The position numbers were made by a program, and so were the translations under genes. 64,000 nucleotides of DNA, from contig JACPKU010000004.1 of NCBI GenBank assembly GCA_016186915.1, positions 67,168 to 131,167 of the forward strand. Reading direction: 5' to 3'. Positions 16,082 to 57,059 of the stretch are shown here, piece by piece (the stretch's first letter is position 1; every line of letters starts with the position of its first letter). A model generated the notes under the pieces. That model saw nothing but the letters and a program-made list of their open reading frames with translations. It made no database searches and was not told the origin of the DNA. This DNA is from Candidatus Doudnabacteria bacterium (lineage in GTDB: Bacteria > Patescibacteriota > Doudnabacteria > UBA920 > O2-02-FULL-48-8).

Positions 16082-16418
16082 TTAAGTCCTTTATTAATAA
16101 TAAAAACACACACTCATGTGTTTTTAAACCAAGAAAAATCTATGGCTTGCGAGTCTTTAAACAGGGCTAAACCGCTGGTTTTATTCCGACGCGGGATTAC
16201 CGGTCGGAACCCCGACCAATGGTCGGGGGAAGACCCAATTAACACAAAATAATCAACAAACAGCAGTTATTGGCTATTTTTTATTAACTGTATGAGTTTG
16301 TTTTTGTTTCTGCTTACTAACTTTAAGAGTATCTACATTATACACGAACCTAGGATTTTGTCAAACGGTTTTTTCATGGCCTTGCCCATACGGCCGCTAA
16401 GTTCTGTATTGACGGGTA

Positions 16419-16567
16419 CGGAGAGATTTTCCAGCCTTCGCTAAAGCTTCGGCGGATCCGCCGGAGCCTTGTGCGGAGGCGGAGAACTCTCACGGACTTG
16501 CGTCCACACGCTCCTGCCTGTCCGCCGAAATTTCGATGAAGGCGGAAAGCTGCGCGCCCCGCACTAA
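16419..16567 (-). pseudogene. tRNA-Leu-like copy interrupted by palindromic insertions
   Basis: Aligns to tRNA-Leu(CAG) T-arm, variable arm and the 3' part of the anticodon arm. Has a ~50-nt insertion in the T-loop and a ~34-nt insertion replacing the 5' anticodon stem. Both insertions contain ccgcc/ggcgg hairpins. No matching 5' acceptor strand nearby. Confidence 0.3.
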
Positions 16568-16588
16568 ATTTTGCTTAGGATCATATTC

Positions 16589-16662
16589 TGGTGCTCGAGG
16601 GGAGAGTCGAACTCCCACGGCCTTGCGGCCATACGCTCCTGAAGCGTACGTGCCCCGCACCA
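16589..16662 (-). tRNA. 3' portion of a second type-II tRNA-Leu(CAG)-like gene
   Basis: Intact TACGC-TTCAGGA-GCGTA anticodon arm, GGCC-GCAA-GGCC variable arm, GGGAG-TTCGACT-CTCCC T-arm, acceptor 3' strand CTCGAGC-A-CCA. Lacks acceptor 5' strand and D-arm. The matching GCTCGAG + D-arm lies at 16790-16854, on the far side of the intact tRNA-Leu. Confidence 0.35.
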
Positions 16663-16681
16663 AAAGAGCTTAGTTTTGTCT

Positions 16682-16768
16682 TGGTGGGCACGGAGAGATT
16701 TGAACTCTCACGGGATTGCTCCCACACGCTCCTGAAGCGTGCGCGTATACCAGTTCCGCCACGTACCC
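16682..16768 (-). tRNA. tRNA-Leu (anticodon CAG), type II, 87 nt
   Basis: Manual fold: acceptor GGGTACG/CGTGCCC, D-arm, anticodon arm CACGC-TTCAGGA-GCGTG, long variable arm GGGA-GCAA-TCCC, T-arm GAGAG-TTCAAAT-CTCTC, encoded CCA. Confidence 0.75.
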
Positions 16769-16789
16769 ATGAATCTTTGGTGCGGGGTA

Positions 16790-16854
16790 AATCTGCCAGC
16801 CTGCCCCGTACCTCCCGCCAGGGCGGGATGGTACCGGGGTTCCACCACTCGAGC
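16790..16854 (-). other. tRNA 5'-half-like segment (acceptor GCTCGAG + D-arm) followed by a ggcgg palindrome
   Basis: GCTCGAG-TG-GTGG-AACCCCGGTA-CCAT, then CCCGCCCTGGCGGG, then ...TTTACCCCGCACC. The last piece is complementary to ggtgcgggg preceding the 3' portion at 16589-16662. Confidence 0.3.
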
Positions 16855-16939
16855 ATAGAAAAGAAGATTAGTGCGGGGTAAATCTGCCAGACGCGGCTAG
16901 ATTTATAGGGTATCACTAAATTCGTTTCGCCTCAACTGC

Positions 16940-19000: not shown

Positions 19001-20959
19001 TCAAAGCTTGGCTTTTATCTTCTCTGCCAAGGAGCGGCCTACTACATTGGAAAGTTCGGTCATGTTAGCAGCTTTTAAAGCCGCGACAGAGCCAAATTTA
19101 CTGAGTAGTTGTTTTTTCTTTTGTGGTCCGATTCCGGGGATAGTGTCCAAGCTGGATAAAAGTAGGGATTGGGATCGGAGTTTGCGGTGGAAGGTTACGG
19201 CGAATCGGTGCGCTTCGTCGCGAATGCGCTGAAGGAGAAACAAAGCAATGGAATTAGGGGGAAGGGTTAAGGGTTTAGGATGCCTAGGCAGAAATATTTC
19301 CTCCAAGCGTTTGGCTAGACCAATGATAGGAATTTTTGTTTTTTTATTGTAAATTGAAAATTGAGATTTGGAAATTGCCGCGATAGCGGCGTTAAGTTGC
19401 CCGCGACCGCCGTCAATGAGGATAAGGTCAGGCAAGGGCCAGGCTTTGTTCCGTGTTCCGTGATCCGTGCCGCCTTTGGCGAGCCTCGCCTCTGGCGGGA
19501 TCCGTGACCTGGAGAATCTCCTTTCCAGCATCTCGCGCATCATAGTGTAATCGTCGGGCGTGTGTTTGCTTCGGATCTTGAATCGCCGATAATCTTGTTT
19601 TTTGGGCCGTCCGTAATCAAATACTACCATTGAGCCGACAGGATTCATCCCTTGAACATTGGAAATATCATAGGCCTCGATTCGACCGGGCAATTTGGAT
19701 AAATTAAGCACGCGTTGCAATTCTTTAAGCGAAGCAAGCAGCCTGGCTTCTTCTAGCAGATTTTTATCACCAGTGCTTTCTAAGTACTGTTTGGCGTTTT
19801 CTGTGCCGAGTTGGATGAGCTTGAGCTTCTGGCCGCGGGATGGAACGAAGATTCGCGGACGTAACTCCCCCTCACCAGCTCTCGGCAGCCGGTGAGGTAG
19901 GGAATTTCCTCTTATACTAAGAGGGGGTTTTTTTGCAGCTACACCTCCCCTTATATTAAGGGGAGGCTGGGAGGGGTTATAACCCTGGGCTGGTAATAGA
20001 ATCTCCCTCGGCCAGCTACTCGCTTCCAAATAATATTTCGGCAGAAATTCATCTAAGATTTCTGCGGGTGTTGCTCCTTTGGTGTTTTTGAGAATAAAGT
20101 TTTCTTTTCTAATCAATTTGCCTTCCCGAATGAGAAATAAATTGATCGAGCCGAGACTGCCCGTAAGATAGAGACTAAAAATATCCTGATCAACTTTTTT
20201 CGGATACACCAGTTTTTGTTTTTCTAATACTCTATTAATAGTAAAGATCTGGTCTCGGATTCGCGCCGCTTTTTCATACTGTCTGTTTCTGCTTAGTTGG
20301 CTCATTTGGGATTTTAAATCGTCGAGCGTTTTTAGCTGCCAGCCGGATAAAAGTTGGACGATCTGATCAATAGCTTTTCGATACTCCGCCAAAGAAATTT
20401 TGCCGATACAGACACCCGGACACTTGCCAATGTGATAATAAAAACATGGCTTGGTGCCAACCTTGGAATTGGAGCAATAAGGAAAAATTTTACGGATCAA
20501 ACGCAAGGTTTGTTTGATGGAATAAGAGGATGTGTAAGGGCCTAAGTAGCGCGCCGATTTACCTGCCCGCCGTAGCTTTAGCGAAGGCGGGTCGGCAATT
20601 TTGCGCTCGAAGTCTATGGTCGGGATTTCGTCCTGGATATTGATTTTTATAAACTGAAAATTTTTGTCGTCTTTCAGCATCATATTGTATTTGGGCTGGA
20701 ATTCCTTGATGAAATTGTTTTCCAAAATCAGGCTTTCGGTTTCATTGTCTGTGATCACATAGCTTAGATCCCGGATTTGGCTGATCATCTGCTGAATCCT
20801 GTTTGATCTTGCTGGGTCGGGCTGGAAATAAGAACGGACTCGGTTTTTAAGCTTGTTGGCCTTGCCCACATACAAAATATCGCCAGCGGCGTTTTTGAAA
20901 ATATAGACGCCAGGTCTGGCTGGTAGTTGTTTGGTTTTTTGAGCCATGCTTTTGCGCAT
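19001..20959 (-). CDS. uvrC: Excinuclease ABC subunit C
   Basis: N-terminal GIY-YIG (PGVYIFKN..GDILYVGKA), UvrBC-interacting region, RNase H-like domain, C-terminal HhH (IPGIGPQKKKQLLSKFGS). Carries in-frame repeat insertions (19460-19489, 19861-19995, 20566-20591). Confidence 0.85.
   Translation of the reverse strand: MRKSMAQKTKQLPARPGVYIFKNAAGDILYVGKANKLKNRVRSYFQPDPARSNRIQQMISQIRDLSYVITDNETESLILENNFIKEFQPKYNMMLKDDKNFQFIKINIQDEIPTIDFERKIADPPSLKLRRAGKSARYLGPYTSSYSIKQTLRLIRKIFPYCSNSKVGTKPCFYYHIGKCPGVCIGKISLAEYRKAIDQIVQLLSGWQLKTLDDLKSQMSQLSRNRQYEKAARIRDQIFTINRVLEKQKLVYPKKVDQDIFSLYLTGSLGSINLFLIREGKLIRKENFILKNTKGATPAEILDEFLPKYYLEASSWPREILLPAQGYNPSQPPLNIRGGVAAKKPPLSIRGNSLPHRLPRAGEGELRPRIFVPSRGQKLKLIQLGTENAKQYLESTGDKNLLEEARLLASLKELQRVLNLSKLPGRIEAYDISNVQGMNPVGSMVVFDYGRPKKQDYRRFKIRSKHTPDDYTMMREMLERRFSRSRIPPEARLAKGGTDHGTRNKAWPLPDLILIDGGRGQLNAAIAAISKSQFSIYNKKTKIPIIGLAKRLEEIFLPRHPKPLTLPPNSIALFLLQRIRDEAHRFAVTFHRKLRSQSLLLSSLDTIPGIGPQKKKQLLSKFGSVAALKAANMTELSNVVGRSLAEKIKAKL
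19460..19489. repeat. CCGCC..GGCGG palindromic element variant in frame in uvrC
   Basis: ccgcctttggcgagcctcgcctctggcgg encodes RLAKGGTDHG in UvrC. Confidence 0.6.
19861..19995. repeat. Modular G-tract hairpin repeat cluster in frame within uvrC
   Basis: cccctcaccagctctcggcagccggtgaggtaggg, cctcttatactaagaggggg, cctccccttatattaaggggagg, gggaggggttataaccc. Encodes ~45 aa (..PPLNIRGGVAAKKPPLSIRGNSLPHRLPRAGEGELRP..) without stops. Confidence 0.65.
20566..20591. repeat. CCCGCC-gtagctttagcgaa-GGCGGG hairpin element in frame in uvrC
   Basis: Encodes PPSLKLRRAG. A related loop motif, gaagctttagcg, occurs at 9399-9422 and 16436-16460. Confidence 0.55.
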
Positions 20960-22056: not shown

Positions 22057-22105
22057 TTCGTTGGTTTCTCGGTTTTTGGGATTTGGATCCTCGGTCCAAT
22101 CCTGT

Positions 22106-22139
22106 GGGAGCAATCACGTTTGGTTGCTCCCATTTTTTT
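22106..22139 (+). terminator. Rho-independent terminator (gggagcaa..ttgctccc + T7)
   Basis: Stem plus TTTTTTT. Confidence 0.55.
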
Positions 22140-35274: not shown

Positions 35275-35351
35275 TGGTGGGTGCAGCAGGATTCGAACCT
35301 GCGACCCTCTGCTTAAAAGGCAGGTGCTCTACCAGGCTGAGCTATGCACCC
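35275..35351 (-). tRNA. tRNA-Lys (anticodon TTT), 77 nt
   Basis: Manual fold: GGGTGCA-TA-GCTC-AGCCTGGTA-GAGC-A-CCTGC-CTTTTAA-GCAGG-AGGGTC-GCAGG-TTCGAAT-CCTGC-TGCACCC-A-CCA. Confidence 0.8.
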
Positions 35352-37020: not shown

Positions 37021-37740
37021 ATGAAAATTGTGGAACTCAATCAACTAAATAAGATTTACAATCCCGGCAAAGAGAATGAGCTGGTGGCTTTGAAAGACAT
37101 CAACCTGACCATTTGGGAAGGTGATTTCGTGGCTATTATGGGGCCTTCGGGCAGCGGCAAATCCACGCTCATGAATATTATCGGGCTGCTGGATTTGCCC
37201 ACCCAGGGTGAATATTTATTCAAAGGGCAAAAGGTTCAGGAGTTAAAACAAGAGGAGTTAGCCCGGCTGCGCTCGGACGAATTGGGCTTTGTATTTCAAA
37301 ATTTTAATTTACTGTCCAGAACCACGGTCTTTGAAAACGTCAGTTTGCCGCTTCTTTACAACCAAGCCAAATCCAACGAAGACGTGGGCCGGGTACTTAC
37401 TGAAGTGGGGTTGGCGGATAAAATAGCCAGCAAACCTAACCAACTTTCCGGCGGGCAAATGCAGCGCGTGGCCATCGCCCGAGCCTTGATCAATCGCCCC
37501 AGTCTGATCTTAGCTGATGAACCCACTGGCAATTTGGACTCCAAAACGGGTTTGGAGATTATGCGACTACTTTCCGAATTTAACGAACAGGGGCAAACCG
37601 TGATTATGGTGACGCATGACCGCAACATTGCCAATTTCGCGCACCGCATTATTCATTTGACTGACGGACAGATTGTCCGGGAGGAACAGCGCATCCACAT
37701 CAATTTCCACAAGCACTACGTTTCTTATGAATCCCGTTAG
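37021..37740 (+). CDS. ABC transporter ATP-binding protein (MacB/LolD/FtsE-like)
   Basis: Walker [25 protein letters not shown] signature, Walker [12 protein letters not shown]. Start at ATG 37021. Confidence 0.8.
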
Positions 37741-37847
37741 AAATAGATATACCCCTGGTTTTAACAATGCCAATATGCAAAAAGACTTAGTTAAAATTAA
37801 TCGCCTCTTGCTTTATTTCTGTTTGGGCGCAAGCAATTTCTAACGGG

Positions 37848-39059
37848 ATGAACCCTCAAGACTATCTTAAATTAGCGGCCACGAGCTTGCTGACCAATAA
37901 AATCCGTTCCAGCTTGACCATGTTGGGCGTGATTATCGGCGTGTTTTCGGTCATCACTTTTTTAGCCATTGGCGAAGGGTTGCGCGCGGAAATTTCCGGC
38001 CAGTTTGAGCAGCTGGGCAGCAATTTGCTGATTGTGCTGCCGGGCAAAGTGGAAGGCCTTGAATCTTTCACCGGCACGATTGGCGCCTCCACTTTGAGTT
38101 TAAAAGACTTGGAGACCATCAAAACGCAAAGTCCTTTGACCGAGTCCGCCTCGCCCGTGATGTTAGTATCCGGCGTGATTACGGTCGCGGGCGAAACTGT
38201 CACTGGCCCGTTTGTGGTGGGCACAGATGAAGCGCAGGATGATATCCAGAAAATGGAGCTGGCCGCCGGCAGTTTTTTTTCAGCCGCGCAAGTAGCAAAC
38301 CAAGCCCGAGTCATGGTGTTAGGCCATAACGCGGAAACCCGGATGTTTGGTGAAACCAATAATGTCGTGGGCAGACGAGTGAGCATCTTGGGCCAAGAAT
38401 TTGAAATTATCGGCTTGGTGAAAAAATCAGAAAGCGCGTTCACTTTCGGGGACTCGTTTGATAATTTAGTGTATATCCCTATCACTACGGCCCAAACCCT
38501 TACCAATTCCGCCCAAGTGGCCCGGATCATGGTAAAAGTCCGGGATCCGGAAAAAGTGGATGAGGCGAGGGAGGAACTTACCAAGCTGGTGCGGTTAAAC
38601 CATGGCGGTTCCGATGATTTCACCGTGCTCAAACAGGAAGAAGTCTTGGAGATCTTTAATGATGTGTTTGGTCAGCTGACGCTGGCTGTTTCCGGCATTG
38701 GCGCTATCTCATTGTTTGTCGCCGGCATTGGCATTATGAATATTATGTTTGTGTCCGTGACCGAACGGACGCGCGAGATTGGCCTGCGGAAAGCGGTGGG
38801 TGCGACCAACAACAATATCTTGATGCAATTTTTGGCTGAAGCCTCCCTGTTGTCTTTATTGGGCGGAGGTTTGGGCGTGTTGTTGGCTTTTATTTTGACC
38901 GTGATTTTGAAAAGCAGTGTGGGGTTGCCGGCGACAGTGACTTGGCAAGCCGTGTTGTTGGCGGCGGGGATTTCCATTGCCGTGGGGGTCATCTTCGGCA
39001 TCGTGCCAGCCATTCGGGCCGCCAGAAAAAACCCGATCGACGCGCTGCGTTATGAGTAA
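37848..39059 (+). CDS. ABC transporter permease (FtsX/MacB family)
   Basis: N-terminal TM, large periplasmic domain, C-terminal four-TM FtsX-like region. Confidence 0.8.
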   Translation: MNPQDYLKLAATSLLTNKIRSSLTMLGVIIGVFSVITFLAIGEGLRAEISGQFEQLGSNLLIVLPGKVEGLESFTGTIGASTLSLKDLETIKTQSPLTESASPVMLVSGVITVAGETVTGPFVVGTDEAQDDIQKMELAAGSFFSAAQVANQARVMVLGHNAETRMFGETNNVVGRRVSILGQEFEIIGLVKKSESAFTFGDSFDNLVYIPITTAQTLTNSAQVARIMVKVRDPEKVDEAREELTKLVRLNHGGSDDFTVLKQEEVLEIFNDVFGQLTLAVSGIGAISLFVAGIGIMNIMFVSVTERTREIGLRKAVGATNNNILMQFLAEASLLSLLGGGLGVLLAFILTVILKSSVGLPATVTWQAVLLAAGISIAVGVIFGIVPAIRAARKNPIDALRYE

Positions 39060-41025: not shown

Positions 41026-42273
41026 ATGCCTAACCAGAAACAAACACTAAAAGAAAAAAAACATATTGTGATTTTGGGCGGCGGGTTTGCCGGCGTGCGC
41101 GCCGCTTTGGATTTGGGAGAGTATTTTAAGCGTGATGATGCGTATGAAATAATTCTTATAGATAAAAAAGACTATCATCTTTACCATGCCGCACTCTATG
41201 AAGCGGCCACCGCGCAGCACGGATTGGTGGAAGCCAGCCAGGTGAAGCGGGCGGTGGTGATCCCTTTTGGCTCCATTTTGAAACGGAGCAAAGTTAAGCA
41301 TTTCAAAGCTTTTATCGATCACGTCGACCTGGACGATGGCAAGGTCGTGACAGATTCGAGGATTGTTTATTTTGATTATTTAGTGACTGCGATGGGCAGT
41401 GTCAGCGATTATTATGGGATTCAGGGAATGGACAAATATGCTTTCACCTTGAAAAGCCTGGATGACGCGATCATGATACGCAATAGGATTGAAGAGTTGG
41501 TAAGCAAGAAAGACAAAGGAGATATTGTTATCGGGGGCGGCGGGTTTGCCGGCGTGGAATTTGCCGGCGAGGTTTACAATTTACTTAAGCATGAGTGCGA
41601 ATACCATAAGAAAGATTTAGCAAAATTTTCTGTAACAATTTTGGAAGGGTCGAGCAATTATTTGCCTGGCTTGTCAGAAAAAGTTTCGAAATTAGCAGCG
41701 GAGAGACTTGCTAAACAAAATGTGCAGGGAAAATTTTCTTCCATAATCACTGAAGTTGGCAGCAATTACGTTGTGCTCAACGAAAAAGACAGGATTGATT
41801 TCGATTTACTGATCTGGACCGGTGGGGTGCGATCCTGTGTCCTACCCTTTAGTGAAAAATTGGAACAGGACAAGAAAGGCCGGACAGTGGTTAACGAATT
41901 TTTGAACATCAGAAAATATCCAAATGTTTTTATTGTAGGCGATAATGTCTGTTTTATCGACAAATTGACGAAGAGTCCAGCGCCCCAGACTGCGCAAGAA
42001 GCTATCCGGCAAGGGCGGCTGGCCGCGAAAAATATTTACCGATTAGTTCGGGGTAAGGAACTGCTGCCCTACCATGCCGGCCCCAGCAGATATGTGATTC
42101 CGGTTTCCGGCAAATATGCCATCATGTACACAAAAAATTTAATTATCGCAGGTTTTTTTGGCTGGATGATCAGAAGGTTTGTAGATTTGAGATATTTTGT
42201 TTCAGTTTTGACATTTATCAAGGCTTTGAAATTGTGGCTTTCCGAAACAAGCGTATTTATGAAAAATGACTAG
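41026..42273 (+). CDS. Type II NADH dehydrogenase-like FAD-dependent oxidoreductase
   Basis: Two Rossmann GxGxxG motifs (ILGGGFAGV, VIGGGGFAGVEFAGE). NDH-2 family organisation. Confidence 0.65.
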   Translation: MPNQKQTLKEKKHIVILGGGFAGVRAALDLGEYFKRDDAYEIILIDKKDYHLYHAALYEAATAQHGLVEASQVKRAVVIPFGSILKRSKVKHFKAFIDHVDLDDGKVVTDSRIVYFDYLVTAMGSVSDYYGIQGMDKYAFTLKSLDDAIMIRNRIEELVSKKDKGDIVIGGGGFAGVEFAGEVYNLLKHECEYHKKDLAKFSVTILEGSSNYLPGLSEKVSKLAAERLAKQNVQGKFSSIITEVGSNYVVLNEKDRIDFDLLIWTGGVRSCVLPFSEKLEQDKKGRTVVNEFLNIRKYPNVFIVGDNVCFIDKLTKSPAPQTAQEAIRQGRLAAKNIYRLVRGKELLPYHAGPSRYVIPVSGKYAIMYTKNLIIAGFFGWMIRRFVDLRYFVSVLTFIKALKLWLSETSVFMKND

Positions 42274-42850
42274 ACCCAGAAGGTCCACCTCGTTTAAGAC
42301 AGATCGCCGCAAGGCGACCGTAAAAAGAGACCGGACGCGGCGGTCTCTAACGGGGTTTACTCTGATAGAGTTGCTTGTAGTTATTGCAATCATCGGGGTT
42401 TTAGCAGCAGTGATTCTAGGCAACATCCGCCGATCCAAAGAACAAGCGTATTATGCCCGGGCCGCGGGCGAGGCCAAAAGCATTGCCGCTGCCATCCAGT
42501 TGTATATCAGTGATAATGGCGACTACCCGGCTGACGCCAACCGCAATCTTCCTCCTGGTCTGGAAGCATATCTGCCCGCAGGCGAGTGGCCCAAAGGTCC
42601 TTGGCCTGGCAGTGTGTATGATTGGGATAATTGGCAGGACCCAGATAATCAATGGCAGCGGATTTACCAAATCAGCATTCGATTTTGCGAAATTGGCGCG
42701 CCTGAAACCTGCCAGTTTCCCAACATTGAGTGGGCAGAGGACTTTGCGGTAAACAGCAGTGTTTATTATTGTTTGGAAGGGGCGTGCCGGCCGCATATCG
42801 GCGAGCCAATTGGTTATCCGGGGAAGTGCATTAATTGTGGCGGTTCTTAG
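42266..42850 (+). CDS. Type IV pilin-like/pseudopilin with N-terminal methylation motif
   Basis: G|FTLIELLVVIAIIGVLAAV class III signal. Cys-rich C-terminus. Unusually long (~29 aa) basic leader. Confidence 0.65.
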   Translation: MTRPRRSTSFKTDRRKATVKRDRTRRSLTGFTLIELLVVIAIIGVLAAVILGNIRRSKEQAYYARAAGEAKSIAAAIQLYISDNGDYPADANRNLPPGLEAYLPAGEWPKGPWPGSVYDWDNWQDPDNQWQRIYQISIRFCEIGAPETCQFPNIEWAEDFAVNSSVYYCLEGACRPHIGEPIGYPGKCINCGGS

Positions 42851-49884: not shown

Positions 49885-50976
49885 TCATCGTATCTTAACA
49901 TATTTGGCGCCGCCTAAATTTTTTACGCGGCCCTTTAATTCCAACAAGCTTAAGGTAGCATTGATTTCGCTAACGGGCAATTTTACTTGTTTGACCAGAT
50001 CGTCAATGTGGATTGGCTCGCGCGTTAAATTCAAGAGCAGTTGGCTTTCCTGATCCGTGGTTGCCAGCGGCTCGGTTTCAGTAAGAACCTGAACATCCAA
50101 ATTCAGCTCTTCAAAAATGTCCTGCGCCGTACTGACTAGTTTTGCCCCTTGTTTAATGAGTTTGTTAGTGCCGCGGCTGGTCGGTGAAAAGATCGAGCCG
50201 GGAATGGCGAACACTTCTCGGCCTTGTTCCAGAGCATAGTTGGCTGTGATAAGTGCGCCGCTTTCTTCATCCGCTTCGATTACCAAGACGCCAATGCTTA
50301 AACCAGAAATCAGCCGGTTGCGGATCGGGAAGTTTTGTTTTTGGACATTTGAATTCAGCGCGTATTCAGAAACCAGACAGCCTTTTTCGGCAACTTCCTG
50401 GGCAAGATTGAAATTTGATCTAGGCGAGATGCTGTTATCCTGTAAATCAGAAGCCAGGATGGCCACTGGTTTGGCACCTGCATTGAGGCAGGCGTGTAAA
50501 GAGAAAGCATCCACGCCAAAAGCCAGACCGGAAATAATGTTGAGGCGGCTTTGTGCCAGGGCTGTCACAATCTCTTCGATTGCCTGTCTGCCGTATTGAC
50601 TGATTTTTCTGCTTCCCACCACTGCAATCCCGGTTTTAGACAAAACTTTTTTATCACCTCTTACATATAACAACGGTGGCGGAGTTGTGATTTCTTTCAG
50701 CAGGGCAGGATATTCAGATTCTAAAATGGTAACCATTTCTATCTTTTGTATCAATAGATCTTCCCAAGCTTTTCCCGGATTGATTCCGGGTTGTTTGGAC
50801 TTGACCGCGTCAATGGTTTTTTGATCGAGCTGGGCCTGGTTCAATTCAAAAGCTGAAGCTTCCCACGCAGTTTTATAATCTCCGAAATAATTTAATAAGC
50901 GCGTGAGTTTAACAGCACCCAGTTCAGGGATGAGGTTCAGGGCGTTGCCGTAGATTTTGTTCTTTGTTTCTGGCAT
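49885..50976 (-). CDS. dprA: DNA-processing protein DprA (Smf)
   Basis: Rossmann-like DprA core (IAVVGSRKISQYG...GLAFGVDAFSLHACLNAG..VAILASDL). C-terminal winged helix. Confidence 0.85.
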   Translation of the reverse strand: MPETKNKIYGNALNLIPELGAVKLTRLLNYFGDYKTAWEASAFELNQAQLDQKTIDAVKSKQPGINPGKAWEDLLIQKIEMVTILESEYPALLKEITTPPPLLYVRGDKKVLSKTGIAVVGSRKISQYGRQAIEEIVTALAQSRLNIISGLAFGVDAFSLHACLNAGAKPVAILASDLQDNSISPRSNFNLAQEVAEKGCLVSEYALNSNVQKQNFPIRNRLISGLSIGVLVIEADEESGALITANYALEQGREVFAIPGSIFSPTSRGTNKLIKQGAKLVSTAQDIFEELNLDVQVLTETEPLATTDQESQLLLNLTREPIHIDDLVKQVKLPVSEINATLSLLELKGRVKNLGGAKYVKIR

Positions 50977-52814: not shown

Positions 52815-53153
52815 CTAATCTAAGTCGTTATATAGATCTCTCCAATCTTTGTTATTAGTTTCGATAAGTTTAATTTTCTTTTTTCTAGAACCTGCCTTGA
52901 TTTGTTTTTCTCTTGCCAAAACAGCATCATAGTCGTCTCCGATCTCAAAATACACCAGCTTAGTGATATTGTATTTTTTAGTAAATCCATGAACGAGTTT
53001 GTTTTTGTGTTCCCAGACCCGAGCTTTTAAAGGTTTGCTAGTAAACCCAGTATAAAGTGTAGTATTTGTCGGGTTCGTCATGATATAAACAAAATACTGC
53101 TCGTCTTGCATATATATAAAGATTGCTTCACCCCGCCAAGGCGGGGTTCGCAA
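52815..53153 (-). CDS. GIY-YIG-family nuclease (COG2827-like)
   Basis: YFVYIMTN..NTTLYTGFTSKPLKARVWEHK....GFTKKY....LVYFE..DDYD.AVLAREKQIK. Confidence 0.7.
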   Translation of the reverse strand: MRTPPWRGEAIFIYMQDEQYFVYIMTNPTNTTLYTGFTSKPLKARVWEHKNKLVHGFTKKYNITKLVYFEIGDDYDAVLAREKQIKAGSRKKKIKLIETNNKDWRDLYNDLD

Positions 53154-56659: not shown

Positions 56660-56697
56660 GGGCGATTAGCTCAGCGGTTAGAGCGCTGCATTTTCAC
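56660..56697 (+). tRNA. tRNA 5' half A (acceptor-D arm-anticodon stem/loop, anticodon UUC)
   Basis: GGGCGAT-TA-GCTC-AGCGGTTA-GAGC-G-CTGCA-TTTTCAC. Its acceptor complements 3' half Y (ATTGCCC). Confidence 0.45.
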
Positions 56698-56788
56698 TCC
56701 GTTAGATTTTCTCGGACGGTTAGCTCACCCCGACGCTTTACCGGTCGGGATCCCGATATCGCAATGCGATTGTCGGGATTGGTTTTCT

Positions 56789-56825
56789 GGGCGGTTAGCT
56801 CAGCGGTAGAGCATTGCATTTTTAC
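56789..56825 (+). tRNA. tRNA 5' half B (anticodon UUU)
   Basis: GGGCGGT-TA-GCTC-AGCGGTA-GAGC-A-TTGCA-TTTTTAC. Its acceptor is the perfect complement of 3' half X (ACCGCCC). Confidence 0.45.
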
Positions 56826-56841
56826 CCCGTTAGATTTTCTT

Positions 56842-56918
56842 GGACGGTTAGCTCAGTTGGTTAGAGCGCGCCGTTCACATCGGCGAGGTCACTGGTTCGA
56901 GTCCAGTACCGTCCACCA
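56842..56918 (+). tRNA. tRNA-Val (anticodon CAC), 77 nt
   Basis: GGACGGT-TA-GCTC-AGTTGGTTA-GAGC-G-CGCCG-TTCACAT-CGGCG-AGGTC-ACTGG-TTCGAGT-CCAGT-ACCGTCC-A-CCA. Confidence 0.8.
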
Positions 56919-56949
56919 GGAAAATCTAAAAATCTAACGGGGCAGGCAT

Positions 56950-56987
56950 TGCAGGGGCCACAGGTTCGAATCCTGTACCGCCCACCA
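56950..56987 (+). tRNA. tRNA 3' half X (anticodon stem 3' strand, variable loop, T-arm, acceptor, CCA)
   Basis: TGCAG-GGGCC-ACAGG-TTCGAAT-CCTGT-ACCGCCC-A-CCA. Pairs with 5' half B. Confidence 0.45.
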
Positions 56988-57021
56988 GTAAAAAGCACTC
57001 AAAATCTAACGGGGCAGGCAT

Positions 57022-57059
57022 TGCAGAAGTCGGCGGTTCGAATCCACCATTGCCCACCA
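57022..57059 (+). tRNA. tRNA 3' half Y
   Basis: TGCAG-AAGTC-GGCGG-TTCGAAT-CCACC-ATTGCCC-A-CCA. Pairs with 5' half A (one G-U). Confidence 0.45.

Follow-up and report, generated by a model that had tools for sequence, protein, structure and literature searches.

A nested tRNA-Leu(CAG) locus in Candidatus Doudnabacteria, probably built by serial insertion of hairpin-armed cassettes that carry a replacement tRNA gene

To our knowledge, the fragmentation of tRNA genes has so far been discussed only for archaea and a few algae. In Nanoarchaeum equitans and Caldivirga maquilingensis, the halves of split tRNA genes reportedly lie at separate loci and are the sole source of the tRNA concerned. Split and intron-containing archaeal tRNAs are matured through a bulge-helix-bulge (BHB) motif by a splicing endonuclease and a ligase; they have GC-rich complementary flanks and are broken in or next to loops, including the D arm. 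Here we describe a tRNA-Leu(CAG) locus on the minus strand of a 64-kb stretch of DNA from Candidatus Doudnabacteria (the window, to which all coordinates refer), in which a complete tRNA-Leu gene lies between the two halves of another gene for the same tRNA, flanked in turn by remnants of an older one. W denotes this locus and L-numbers denote related loci. Our search of the literature returned no account of a tRNA nested in tRNA genes, nor of palindromic cassettes that carry a tRNA. As in the archaeal split tRNAs, 5′ and 3′ parts are found with complementary flanks (9 bp, up to ~14 bp here) and with breaks in or near loops; unlike them, the halves enclose an entire gene for that tRNA, lack a BHB motif and are decaying, and the host is a bacterium.

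Other described systems share different parts of this picture. At the tRNA-Thr locus of Caldiarchaeum, a 5′ fragment has been displaced by a mobile element (PMC3293823). There, as with integrative plasmids and viruses of the SSV1 and pNOB8 types, a tRNA gene is disrupted, a working gene is kept and the displaced fragment remains alongside; the same is seen here, and integrative elements and the present locus alike are heterogeneous among close relatives. The SSV1- and pNOB8-type elements, however, are kb-sized, encode an integrase, duplicate only the attP-matching part of the tRNA and leave one direct repeat, whereas here a gene-less cassette of ~130 bp holds a whole tRNA, sits inside the old gene, leaves both halves in place and is stacked up to three or four deep. 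Repetitive extragenic palindromic (REP) elements bear a GTAG tetranucleotide next to their stem, and the palindromic elements of Rickettsia sit inside genes. REP and REPIN sequences, miniature transposable elements with inverted repeats (MITEs) and the Rickettsia elements are, like the repeats described below, short GC-rich hairpins without open reading frames (ORFs) that occur in many copies; CAGG is here the counterpart of GTAG, and one copy lies inside uvrC (20562-20600), as the Rickettsia elements lie inside genes. The hairpin-plus-tetranucleotide layout resembles that of REP elements, and we claim no membership of that group. We know of no REP or MITE that has a complete tRNA as passenger and targets the gene for that same tRNA; moreover, the present loci show no target duplication and have no REP-associated tyrosine transposase (RAYT) or other transposase beside them.

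Introns and free-standing endonuclease genes, for example segB in the tRNA gene region of T4, spread by homing. The present locus resembles such elements in its fixed point within a conserved gene, in its filled and empty alleles and in mosaic flanks that suggest co-conversion; stand-alone HNH or GIY-YIG genes also lie next to some tRNA loci (L066, L180). On the other hand, the cassettes of the window have no endonuclease gene in or beside them. Finally, the group I introns of Patescibacteria tRNAs, ribozymes several hundred nucleotides long that sit in the anticodon loop, splice out and restore the host tRNA (PMC13011429). They share with the present locus the phylum, the interruption of tRNA loops and the hiding of genes from standard tRNA finders; here, however, no ribozyme is present, the insert measures ~133-139 nt, against at least 200 nt for such an intron, and the host gene is replaced rather than restored. 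In its action the Leu locus is to some degree comparable to integrative elements that restore their target, and in its spread to homing elements, although it lacks defining features of each of the families compared here.

ARAGORN and Rfam identify three tRNA genes in the window: tRNA-Leu(CAG) (16682-16768, minus strand), tRNA-Lys(UUU) (35275-35351), whose locus is plain and without nesting, and tRNA-Val(CAC) (56842-56918, plus strand). Read on the minus strand, the live tRNA-Leu(CAG) (16768-16682; allele GGGTACG; 53.7 bits with the Rfam tRNA model) lies, as a first-pass annotation of the DNA had proposed, between a 5′ and a 3′ piece of a tRNA-Leu(CAG) gene of allele GCTCGAG; the limits of these pieces needed only small corrections. 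The 5′ piece (16854-16792), which corresponds to tRNA nucleotides 1-21, reads GCTCGAG-TG-GTG-GAA, then a compound palindrome of 40 nt with a CAGG tail (16839-16800) placed in the D-loop at GAA|CTGG, then CTGGCAGA. The same D-loop site bears a palindrome in L009, L015, L061, L032, and L048. There follow the left end of the insert, consisting of TTTA and the arm CCCCGCACC (16791-16779), a leader of 10 nt (16778-16769), the live gene, a trailer of 20 nt (16681-16662) and the right arm GGTGCGGGG (16661-16653). The 3′ piece (16652-16589; nucleotides 22-76 plus CCA) begins with CAC-G, continues through complete anticodon, variable and T arms and ends in CTCGAGC-A-CCA. The GCTCGAG gene is therefore split exactly at the junction of D-loop and D-stem, and 87 nt of the insert between its halves are tRNA.

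The two pieces fit each other closely. Their acceptor strands pair at 7 of 7 positions, bearing out the perfect complementarity claimed at first pass, and the two arms pair at 9 of 9, extendable to ~14 bp with one bulge, where a bracketing helix of ~10 bp had been predicted. Once the palindrome and the arm-to-arm insert are removed, ARAGORN recognizes the joined pieces as a perfect 87-nt tRNA-Leu(CAG). Taken alone, the 3′ piece gives 48 bits with an nhmmer tRNA-Leu profile and 26.8 bits with the Rfam tRNA model, which is under the 29-bit threshold; ARAGORN run in intron mode does not recover the split genes, and relaxed thresholds yield spurious calls only.

Older layers are visible on both sides of the split gene. 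Upstream, beyond a spacer of 16 nt, a remnant at 16890-16871 consists of the D-loop end CTGGCAGA and the left arm TTTACCCCGCAC. Its sequence, CTGGCAGATTTACCCCGCAC, is the recurring motif pointed out at first pass; it is an exact 20-nt direct repeat of 16780-16799, and is homologous to the junction ahead of the GCTCGAG tRNA in L009, L015, and L061. It marks the oldest left junction, from which the upstream acceptor and D-stem portion is gone. Downstream, the 3′ piece is followed by a trailer or spacer of 24 nt (16588-16565), a right arm GTGCGGGG (16564-16557), which is homologous to that of L009 and L015 and would be the end of the older cassette with the GCTCGAG tRNA as cargo, and the oldest 3′ piece, a decayed GGGTACG-like copy (16556-16410; 20 bits with the same nhmmer profile) with an acceptor strand, CGTACCC, that corresponds to the live gene's 5′ strand. 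This third copy had been recognized before and, with its arm, spans 16564-16410, slightly past the limit of 16419 first given. It had been described as interrupted by palindromes in the T-loop and at the 5′ anticodon stem. The former holds (a palindrome cluster at 16483-16431), whereas the other palindrome, with its CAGG tail (16546-16517), lies in the anticodon loop after U33, and the lesion of the 5′ anticodon stem is a separate 1-nt deletion. Cleaned of its palindromes, the third copy is still rejected by ARAGORN. The exact 9-mer TTTACCCCG occurs three times in the 64 kb, each time at a tRNA junction (twice at Leu and once at Val); like the nhmmer scores of the 3′ piece and the third copy, this speaks against a chance resemblance.

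The locus was compared with about 90 related loci. The tRNA-Leu(CAG) gene is syntenic in 58 of 79 of them, in the order UvrC, solute-binding protein (SBP), tRNA-Leu, variable islet, RNase J and tryptophanyl-tRNA synthetase (TrpRS). About 20 of these 58 hold extra tRNA-Leu pieces and about 38 related loci have a single plain gene; every related locus with pieces also holds an intact tRNA-Leu gene. In 11 loci (W, L006, L007, L009, L015, L025, L026, L040, L054, L061, and L066), the live gene lies between a 5′ and a 3′ piece whose acceptor strands are complementary, and in 10 Leu loci arms of the form TTYA-CCCCG[C/T]AC / GT[G/A]CGGGG stand exactly at the bond between nucleotides 21 and 22.

Filled and empty sites were compared at this bond. 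The GCTCGAG gene is uninterrupted in L009 and L015 (..CTGGTATA|CACG..), and in W the cassette lies at exactly the same position; likewise, the GGGCACG gene is uninterrupted in L010, L011, L014, and L018 and split at this bond in L009. Nothing is duplicated and nothing lost. The 21|22 junction is fixed in the 10 Leu loci and in one Val locus (L080), with empty alleles in L009, L015, L010, and L018, and in L177 for a Val allele (allele C, below). Furthermore, live and split alleles exchange roles. GCTCGAG is live in L009 and L015 inside split GGG[C/T]ACG genes, while in W it is itself split by a GGGTACG-type gene and has the relic of an older GGGTACG-type gene outside it. L061 shares the first step with W and then has a different second cassette. 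In L032 and L057, whose RNase J proteins are 95% identical, GCCGCGG and GCCCAGG are found in reversed live and split roles.

The identity of tRNA-Leu is uncoupled from the relatedness of the genomes. The acceptor stems of the live genes vary widely (GGGCGTG, GCCGCGG, GCTCGAG, GGGCACG, GGGTACG, GCCCAGG, and others), and hardly any correlation links the identity of the tRNA to that of RNase J (Spearman 0.19): the tRNAs of L002 and L006 are 61% identical despite 95% identity in RNase J, and those of L020 and L025 are 100% identical despite 67%. A few allele classes persist in divergent genomes, GCTCGAG for instance being intact in L009, L015, L026, L041, and L048. The live or cargo tRNAs are mosaics of acceptor/T-arm and anticodon-arm modules, and L025, L054, and L040 have near-identical junction modules while the rest of the outer gene differs; both kinds of mosaic point to recombination. 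The outer pieces, on the other hand, decay. In W they carry palindromes and a deletion, in L009 the anticodon loop is mutated, in L061 the anticodon arm is lost and the T stem broken, and in L015 the outer piece is still nearly intact. Different damage in orthologous pieces is the pattern expected of pseudogenes.

The sequences that frame the cassettes are not peculiar to tRNA genes. A census of hairpins identified a dispersed family of the form (C)CCGCC..GGCGG(G)+CAGG, with CCCGCCTTCGC..GGCGGG+CAGG at many sites, including 20562-20600 of the window. Leu-type arms, CCCCGCACC..GGTGCGGGG+CAAG, occur as empty hairpins at non-tRNA sites (L014:8500, L023:6168, and L061:7748). Empty hairpins with the same arms indicate that the cassette arms belong to families of small palindromic repeats that are independent of tRNAs. 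The dead pieces are invaded by the same families at three places: in the D-loop (GAA|CTGG), behind U33 in the anticodon loop, and in the T loop. The early proposal that GGCGG-type palindromes are involved is thus upheld: they interrupt dead pieces and, in L080, palindrome halves are the arms around a live tRNA. The further proposal that tRNA genes are preferred targets of the palindromes stands in part only, as palindromes do hit the dead pieces, whereas the decisive insertions bring a complete replacement tRNA. With terminal inverted repeats of 9-14 bp, a length of ~130-190 bp, only a tRNA encoded, and copies of the same ends dispersed at unrelated sites, the cassettes look like MITEs or REPs. 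One position of the arms covaries (CGCAC/GTGCG against CGTAC/GTACG in L015 and L032). An origin of the arms as duplicated D-stem strands was rejected, since the D stems of L009 and L015 are GCG/CGC and their arms CAC/GTG or TAC/GTA. A target duplication of five bp (GCATT or TTCAT) does not fit the tRNA junctions. Nor did we find support for a phage origin: a viral scan with Val-type arms gave no match, and the 81 viral matches of the Leu arms, all in GC-rich contigs and with no tRNA between the arms, are consistent with chance.

The window's tRNA-Val locus (56660-57059, plus strand) shares this architecture, as had been noted, and is three to four levels deep. Piece A of the 5′ side (56660-56692) is followed by an arm, then by 5′ piece B (56714-56788) and 5′ piece C (56789-56820) with the arm TTTACCCCGTTAGATTTTC. 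After the live tRNA-Val(CAC) (56842-56918) come the arm AAAATCTAACGGGG+CAGG, 3′ piece C (to 56987), another arm and 3′ piece A (to 57059). The two A pieces pair with each other, as do the two C pieces; the arms read TT[T/C]AC[C/T]CCGTTAGATTTTC and AAAATCTAACGGGG+CAGG, and allele GGACGGT stands at two nesting levels. Allele C is a plain live gene in L177 (anticodon loop TTCACAT) and allele A is live in L080. In the latter, the live tRNA-Val lies between CCCGCCTTCGCT and AGCTTCGGCGGA+CAGG, the halves of a dispersed palindrome that is found empty at many genomic places, and the whole unit of palindrome halves and tRNA sits at 21|22 of another tRNA-Val. Among the other relatives, L181 has a 3′ Val piece with a T-loop palindrome, L184 has two 5′ Val pieces that both end at C36, and L179, L180, and L182 have a plain tRNA-Val. 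In L178, whose histidyl-tRNA synthetase (HisRS) is 80% identical, the spacer between the LytR and signal peptidase genes is only 79 nt long (1712-1791) and without tRNA-Val, which indicates that the gene has left an otherwise conserved locus. A metagenome scan with HisRS returned one locus only.

In many genomes and in two tRNA families, then, complete tRNA genes with flanking arms have been inserted, precisely and one inside another, at loop positions of the resident gene homologous to them; allele turnover and decay of the outer halves accompany these insertions. We regard it as probable that the Leu locus arose by serial insertion of tiny hairpin-armed cassettes, each with a complete replacement tRNA-Leu(CAG). 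Such a cassette of ~130 bp would hold one complete tRNA-Leu(CAG) with a short leader and a short trailer, enclosed by the complementary arms TT[T/C]A-CCCCG[C/T]AC.. and ..GT[G/A]CGGGG, both arms coming from the same palindrome families as those in the dead pieces. Landing precisely between nucleotides 21 and 22 of the resident gene, it would split the old gene and supply a working copy at the same time. Since the insertion would destroy an essential, probably single-copy gene and replace it, the cassette could hardly be lost afterwards; a hit on such a gene would otherwise be lethal, so that the cassette presumably inserts as a loaded unit. In W, a GGGTACG-type gene would have been split first by a GCTCGAG cassette, a state still present in L009 and L015, and GCTCGAG would then have been split by the GGGTACG-type cassette that brought the present live gene. 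Only the innermost gene would be functional, and RNase P, together with 3′ trimming, probably frees its tRNA from a precursor made by read-through, whereas the outer halves would be relics that decay and are colonized by dispersed small palindromes with a 3′ CAGG tail. Between strains, the cassettes most likely spread after DNA uptake by a homing-like recombination that takes place in the tRNA halves on either side; the structure of W is precisely the outcome expected of a genome in the state of L015 that recombined with a donor in which GCTCGAG was split by a GGGTACG cassette.

A broader reading, which we put forward with some reservation, is that these are selfish replacement cassettes of an undescribed class, whose sole cargo is a tRNA gene and which home into a loop of the resident gene for the same tRNA. 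With the same reservation, competing cassettes might overwrite one another and so produce nested gene fossils, fast turnover and a trans-specific polymorphism of tRNA alleles in the Candidate Phyla Radiation (CPR), and might at the same time be a bacterial route to tRNA genes in pieces. If this were true, an essential and probably single-copy gene would be overwritten repeatedly by an element that brings its own copy, with neither splicing nor a linked integrase, and the very different tRNA-Leu and tRNA-Val alleles among closely related Doudnabacteria would be explained. It would also follow that tRNA-based phylogenies of the CPR and calls of 'pseudo' or 'missing' tRNAs could mislead. Moreover, the loci would offer a concrete bacterial model for the fragmentation of tRNA genes and for halves with complementary flanks, and the nested relics would order successive events, making rates of invasion and decay measurable.

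Several points weigh against serial insertion of loaded cassettes. Cassettes with identical arms carry different cargo alleles, which fits equally well the alternative that the hairpin came first and captured a tRNA at its apex later, or that cargo was exchanged by recombination. The comparison of filled with empty sites gives no target-site duplication, and no abutted arm-to-arm junction of the kind found in transposon circles is present in about 1 Mb of related DNA. In the window, neither locus has a transposase, integrase or nuclease gene linked to it. Apart from its D-loop palindrome, the GCTCGAG outer copy of the window has all stems intact, and that only the inner tRNA-Leu works is a conclusion we infer; furthermore, the reading is built on the 64-kb window and about 90 loci only.

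The cassettes of the Leu and Val loci contain no endonuclease ORF. Two types of endonuclease gene found elsewhere are leads only to the insertion enzyme. The first is a stand-alone GIY-YIG ORF (52815-53153, minus strand; Pfam E = 5.6e-13) with a CCCCGCC..GGCGGGG hairpin at its 5′ end; in L180, a GIY-YIG ORF 39% identical to it (1538-1807) lies directly downstream of tRNA-Val. As a general driver it was rejected, the 79 Leu loci having no homologues. The second is an HNH_5 endonuclease gene (271 aa), which lies just downstream of the type-II tRNAs Leu(CAG), Ser(GGA) and Ser(TGA) (L066 3850-5230, L166 1400-3320, and L175 1460-3320) and is preceded by a conserved module made of a tRNA 3′ end and GCA..AAAGTATCGG..GAGT. 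On each side of this cassette in L066 stands a 77-nt copy of the 3′ part of tRNA-Leu, the two copies being 100% identical. The HNH_5 gene seems to form a gene cassette of its own, directed at the 3′ ends of tRNAs; among the 79 loci and the window it is found in L066 only, and its homologues elsewhere form the separate cassette downstream of tRNA-Ser, so that it too was rejected as a general driver.

Of the alternatives to serial insertion, programmed or selected switching of cassettes survives best, and even so we consider it unlikely. The silent halves would serve as a reservoir, like pilS copies, out of which other tRNA-Leu alleles would be rebuilt by recombination, for example for escape from toxins or nucleases that target tRNAs. 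The presence of one allele at two nesting levels (GGGTACG in Leu, GGACGGT in Val), live and split roles turned inside out between genomes with 95-97% identical RNase J, the modular mosaics of the live tRNAs and the few allele classes that persist across divergent genomes could all be read in this way. However, no simple recombination interconverts the nested states without an external donor, the silent copies collect lesions, the locus has no linked recombinase or invertase, and most loci are plain.

Slightly less probable still is an origin as scars of tyrosine-integrase islands in tRNA-Leu, that is, partial attachment-site (att) copies left after later loss of the island body. Tyrosine integrases favour anticodon and T loops as crossover sites, and the break points do lie in tRNA loops. 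The spacer between tRNA-Leu and RNase J is an islet that varies in L002-L075, with 0-4 unrelated genes (F420 ligase-like, Mur ligase, sodium:solute symporter, deoxyhypusine synthase and DUF2339 genes) and an IS1595 transposase in L015; this islet suits the att reading, as does the HNH cassette of L066 with its identical 77-nt tRNA 3′ copies and its homologues downstream of tRNA-Ser, and some lone 3′ pieces in relatives may well have originated as att scars. In the window, however, the pieces belong to another allele than the live gene and both halves bracket a complete gene. In addition, the insert of only ~133 bp has complementary arms and no target repeat, no integrase is found nearby (the neighbours are SBP_bac_5, UvrC, RNase J and TrpRS), and the same 21|22 junction with the same arms is seen in 10 loci.

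That the pieces are a processed intervening sequence or a functional split tRNA, as suggested at first pass, is very improbable. The halves would be co-transcribed, RNase P and RNase Z would excise the inner tRNA, and the halves, which the arm helix and acceptor stem would keep in contact, would be ligated or would act as a two-piece tRNA-Leu(CAG). The perfect complementarity of the acceptor strands and the intact GCTCGAG stems agree with this, and the arm helix of 9-14 bp resembles the complementary sequences of the Nanoarchaeum split tRNAs. The minimum-energy fold of the whole segment is a cloverleaf inside a cloverleaf (-127 kcal/mol, z = -5.0), and in several relatives the leader pairs with CCA and trailer, a possible feature of RNA processing. 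On the other hand, the arm junctions lack the 3-nt bulges around a 4-bp helix that make a BHB motif, the helix directly abutting the D stem on the 3′ side and facing a 15-nt loop on the 5′ side, and Rfam at E<=10 finds tRNA and no ribozyme at either locus. The product would only repeat an anticodon that the live gene already supplies, and an intact tRNA bearing it is present in every case; its 5′ half carries the 40-nt palindrome in the D-loop; the older outer copies are plainly dead, and orthologous ones decay differently in W, L009, L015, and L061. The Val junctions have no usable anticodon loop, and about 38 related loci do with one plain gene. The missing BHB motif and ribozyme, the intact tRNA of the same anticodon, the differing lesions and the reversal of live and split roles together lead us to take the pieces as relics of replaced genes.

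Mis-assembly of a metagenome that interleaved the tRNA alleles of coexisting strains has a negligible chance of being the explanation, because, although short-read contigs do break within the repeated anticodon-arm region (the only place where Logan contigs end), independent Logan contigs from other sequencing runs match 19497-16740 and 16719-10324 of the window with 0 mismatches and so reproduce both junctions, these junctions hold non-tRNA arms of exact complementarity, and the same architecture recurs in RIFCSP-series scaffolds and in k141_- and NODE_-named contigs of unrelated projects, names that presumably point to different assemblers.

The neighbours of the Leu locus are housekeeping genes (TrpRS, RNase J, an SBP_bac_5 protein and UvrC), and the relatives of RNase J place the window in Candidatus Doudnabacteria, within the Patescibacteria/CPR. 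A cyanobacterial origin, or repeats of the HIP1 type, was rejected on this ground and because GCGATCGC is without enrichment. Between the tRNA array and the start of RNase J lies a perfect sigma-70-type promoter, TTGACA-16-TATAAT (12/12; 16337-16364, minus strand). No comparable promoter was found upstream of the tRNA array, so that transcription of the tRNAs may come by read-through from the SBP gene. The tRNA-Leu gene has the opposite orientation in eight close relatives. The leader of the live tRNA-Leu is often complementary to CCA plus trailer, for example GCAGTTGG / CCAACTGC (L007, L061, L049, L038, and L030); this lengthens the acceptor helix by 8-19 bp, even where outer pieces are absent (L030), and could be a signal for RNA processing or a footprint of the origin of the cassette. 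Elsewhere in the window lie genes for DprA (49885-50976; DNA_processg_A, E = 1.3e-72) and, at 42266-42850, for a type IV pilin-like protein whose N-terminus has a methylation motif, which is consistent with DNA uptake and recombination in the host.

Further members of the repeat families lie outside the tRNA loci. Inside the UvrC ORF (19001-20959), the palindrome CCCGCCTTCGCTAAAGCTACGGCGGG+CAGG (20562-20600, minus strand) falls at about residues 120-132, between the GIY-YIG and UVR domains, and looks as if a palindrome had been inserted in frame into a protein-coding gene. One inverted pair, CCCGTTAGAAAT..ATTTCTAACGGG, with TTCAT before and ATTCAT after it, encloses ~75-90 nt of AT-rich intergenic non-tRNA DNA (37733-37847 in the window, 10857-10955 in L015). 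At its ends it is similar to the arms of the tRNA-Val cassettes and to the left arm of L041, and its right copy in the window abuts the start codon of an ORF (37848-39059). Finally, a hairpin TGGGAGCAATCACG..TTGCTCCCA at 22105-22132, which is bordered by T-runs left and right and, on the minus strand, followed by CAGG, has 11 nt (TGGGAGCAATC) in common with the variable arm of the live tRNA-Leu and may be a terminator built from the same repeat family.

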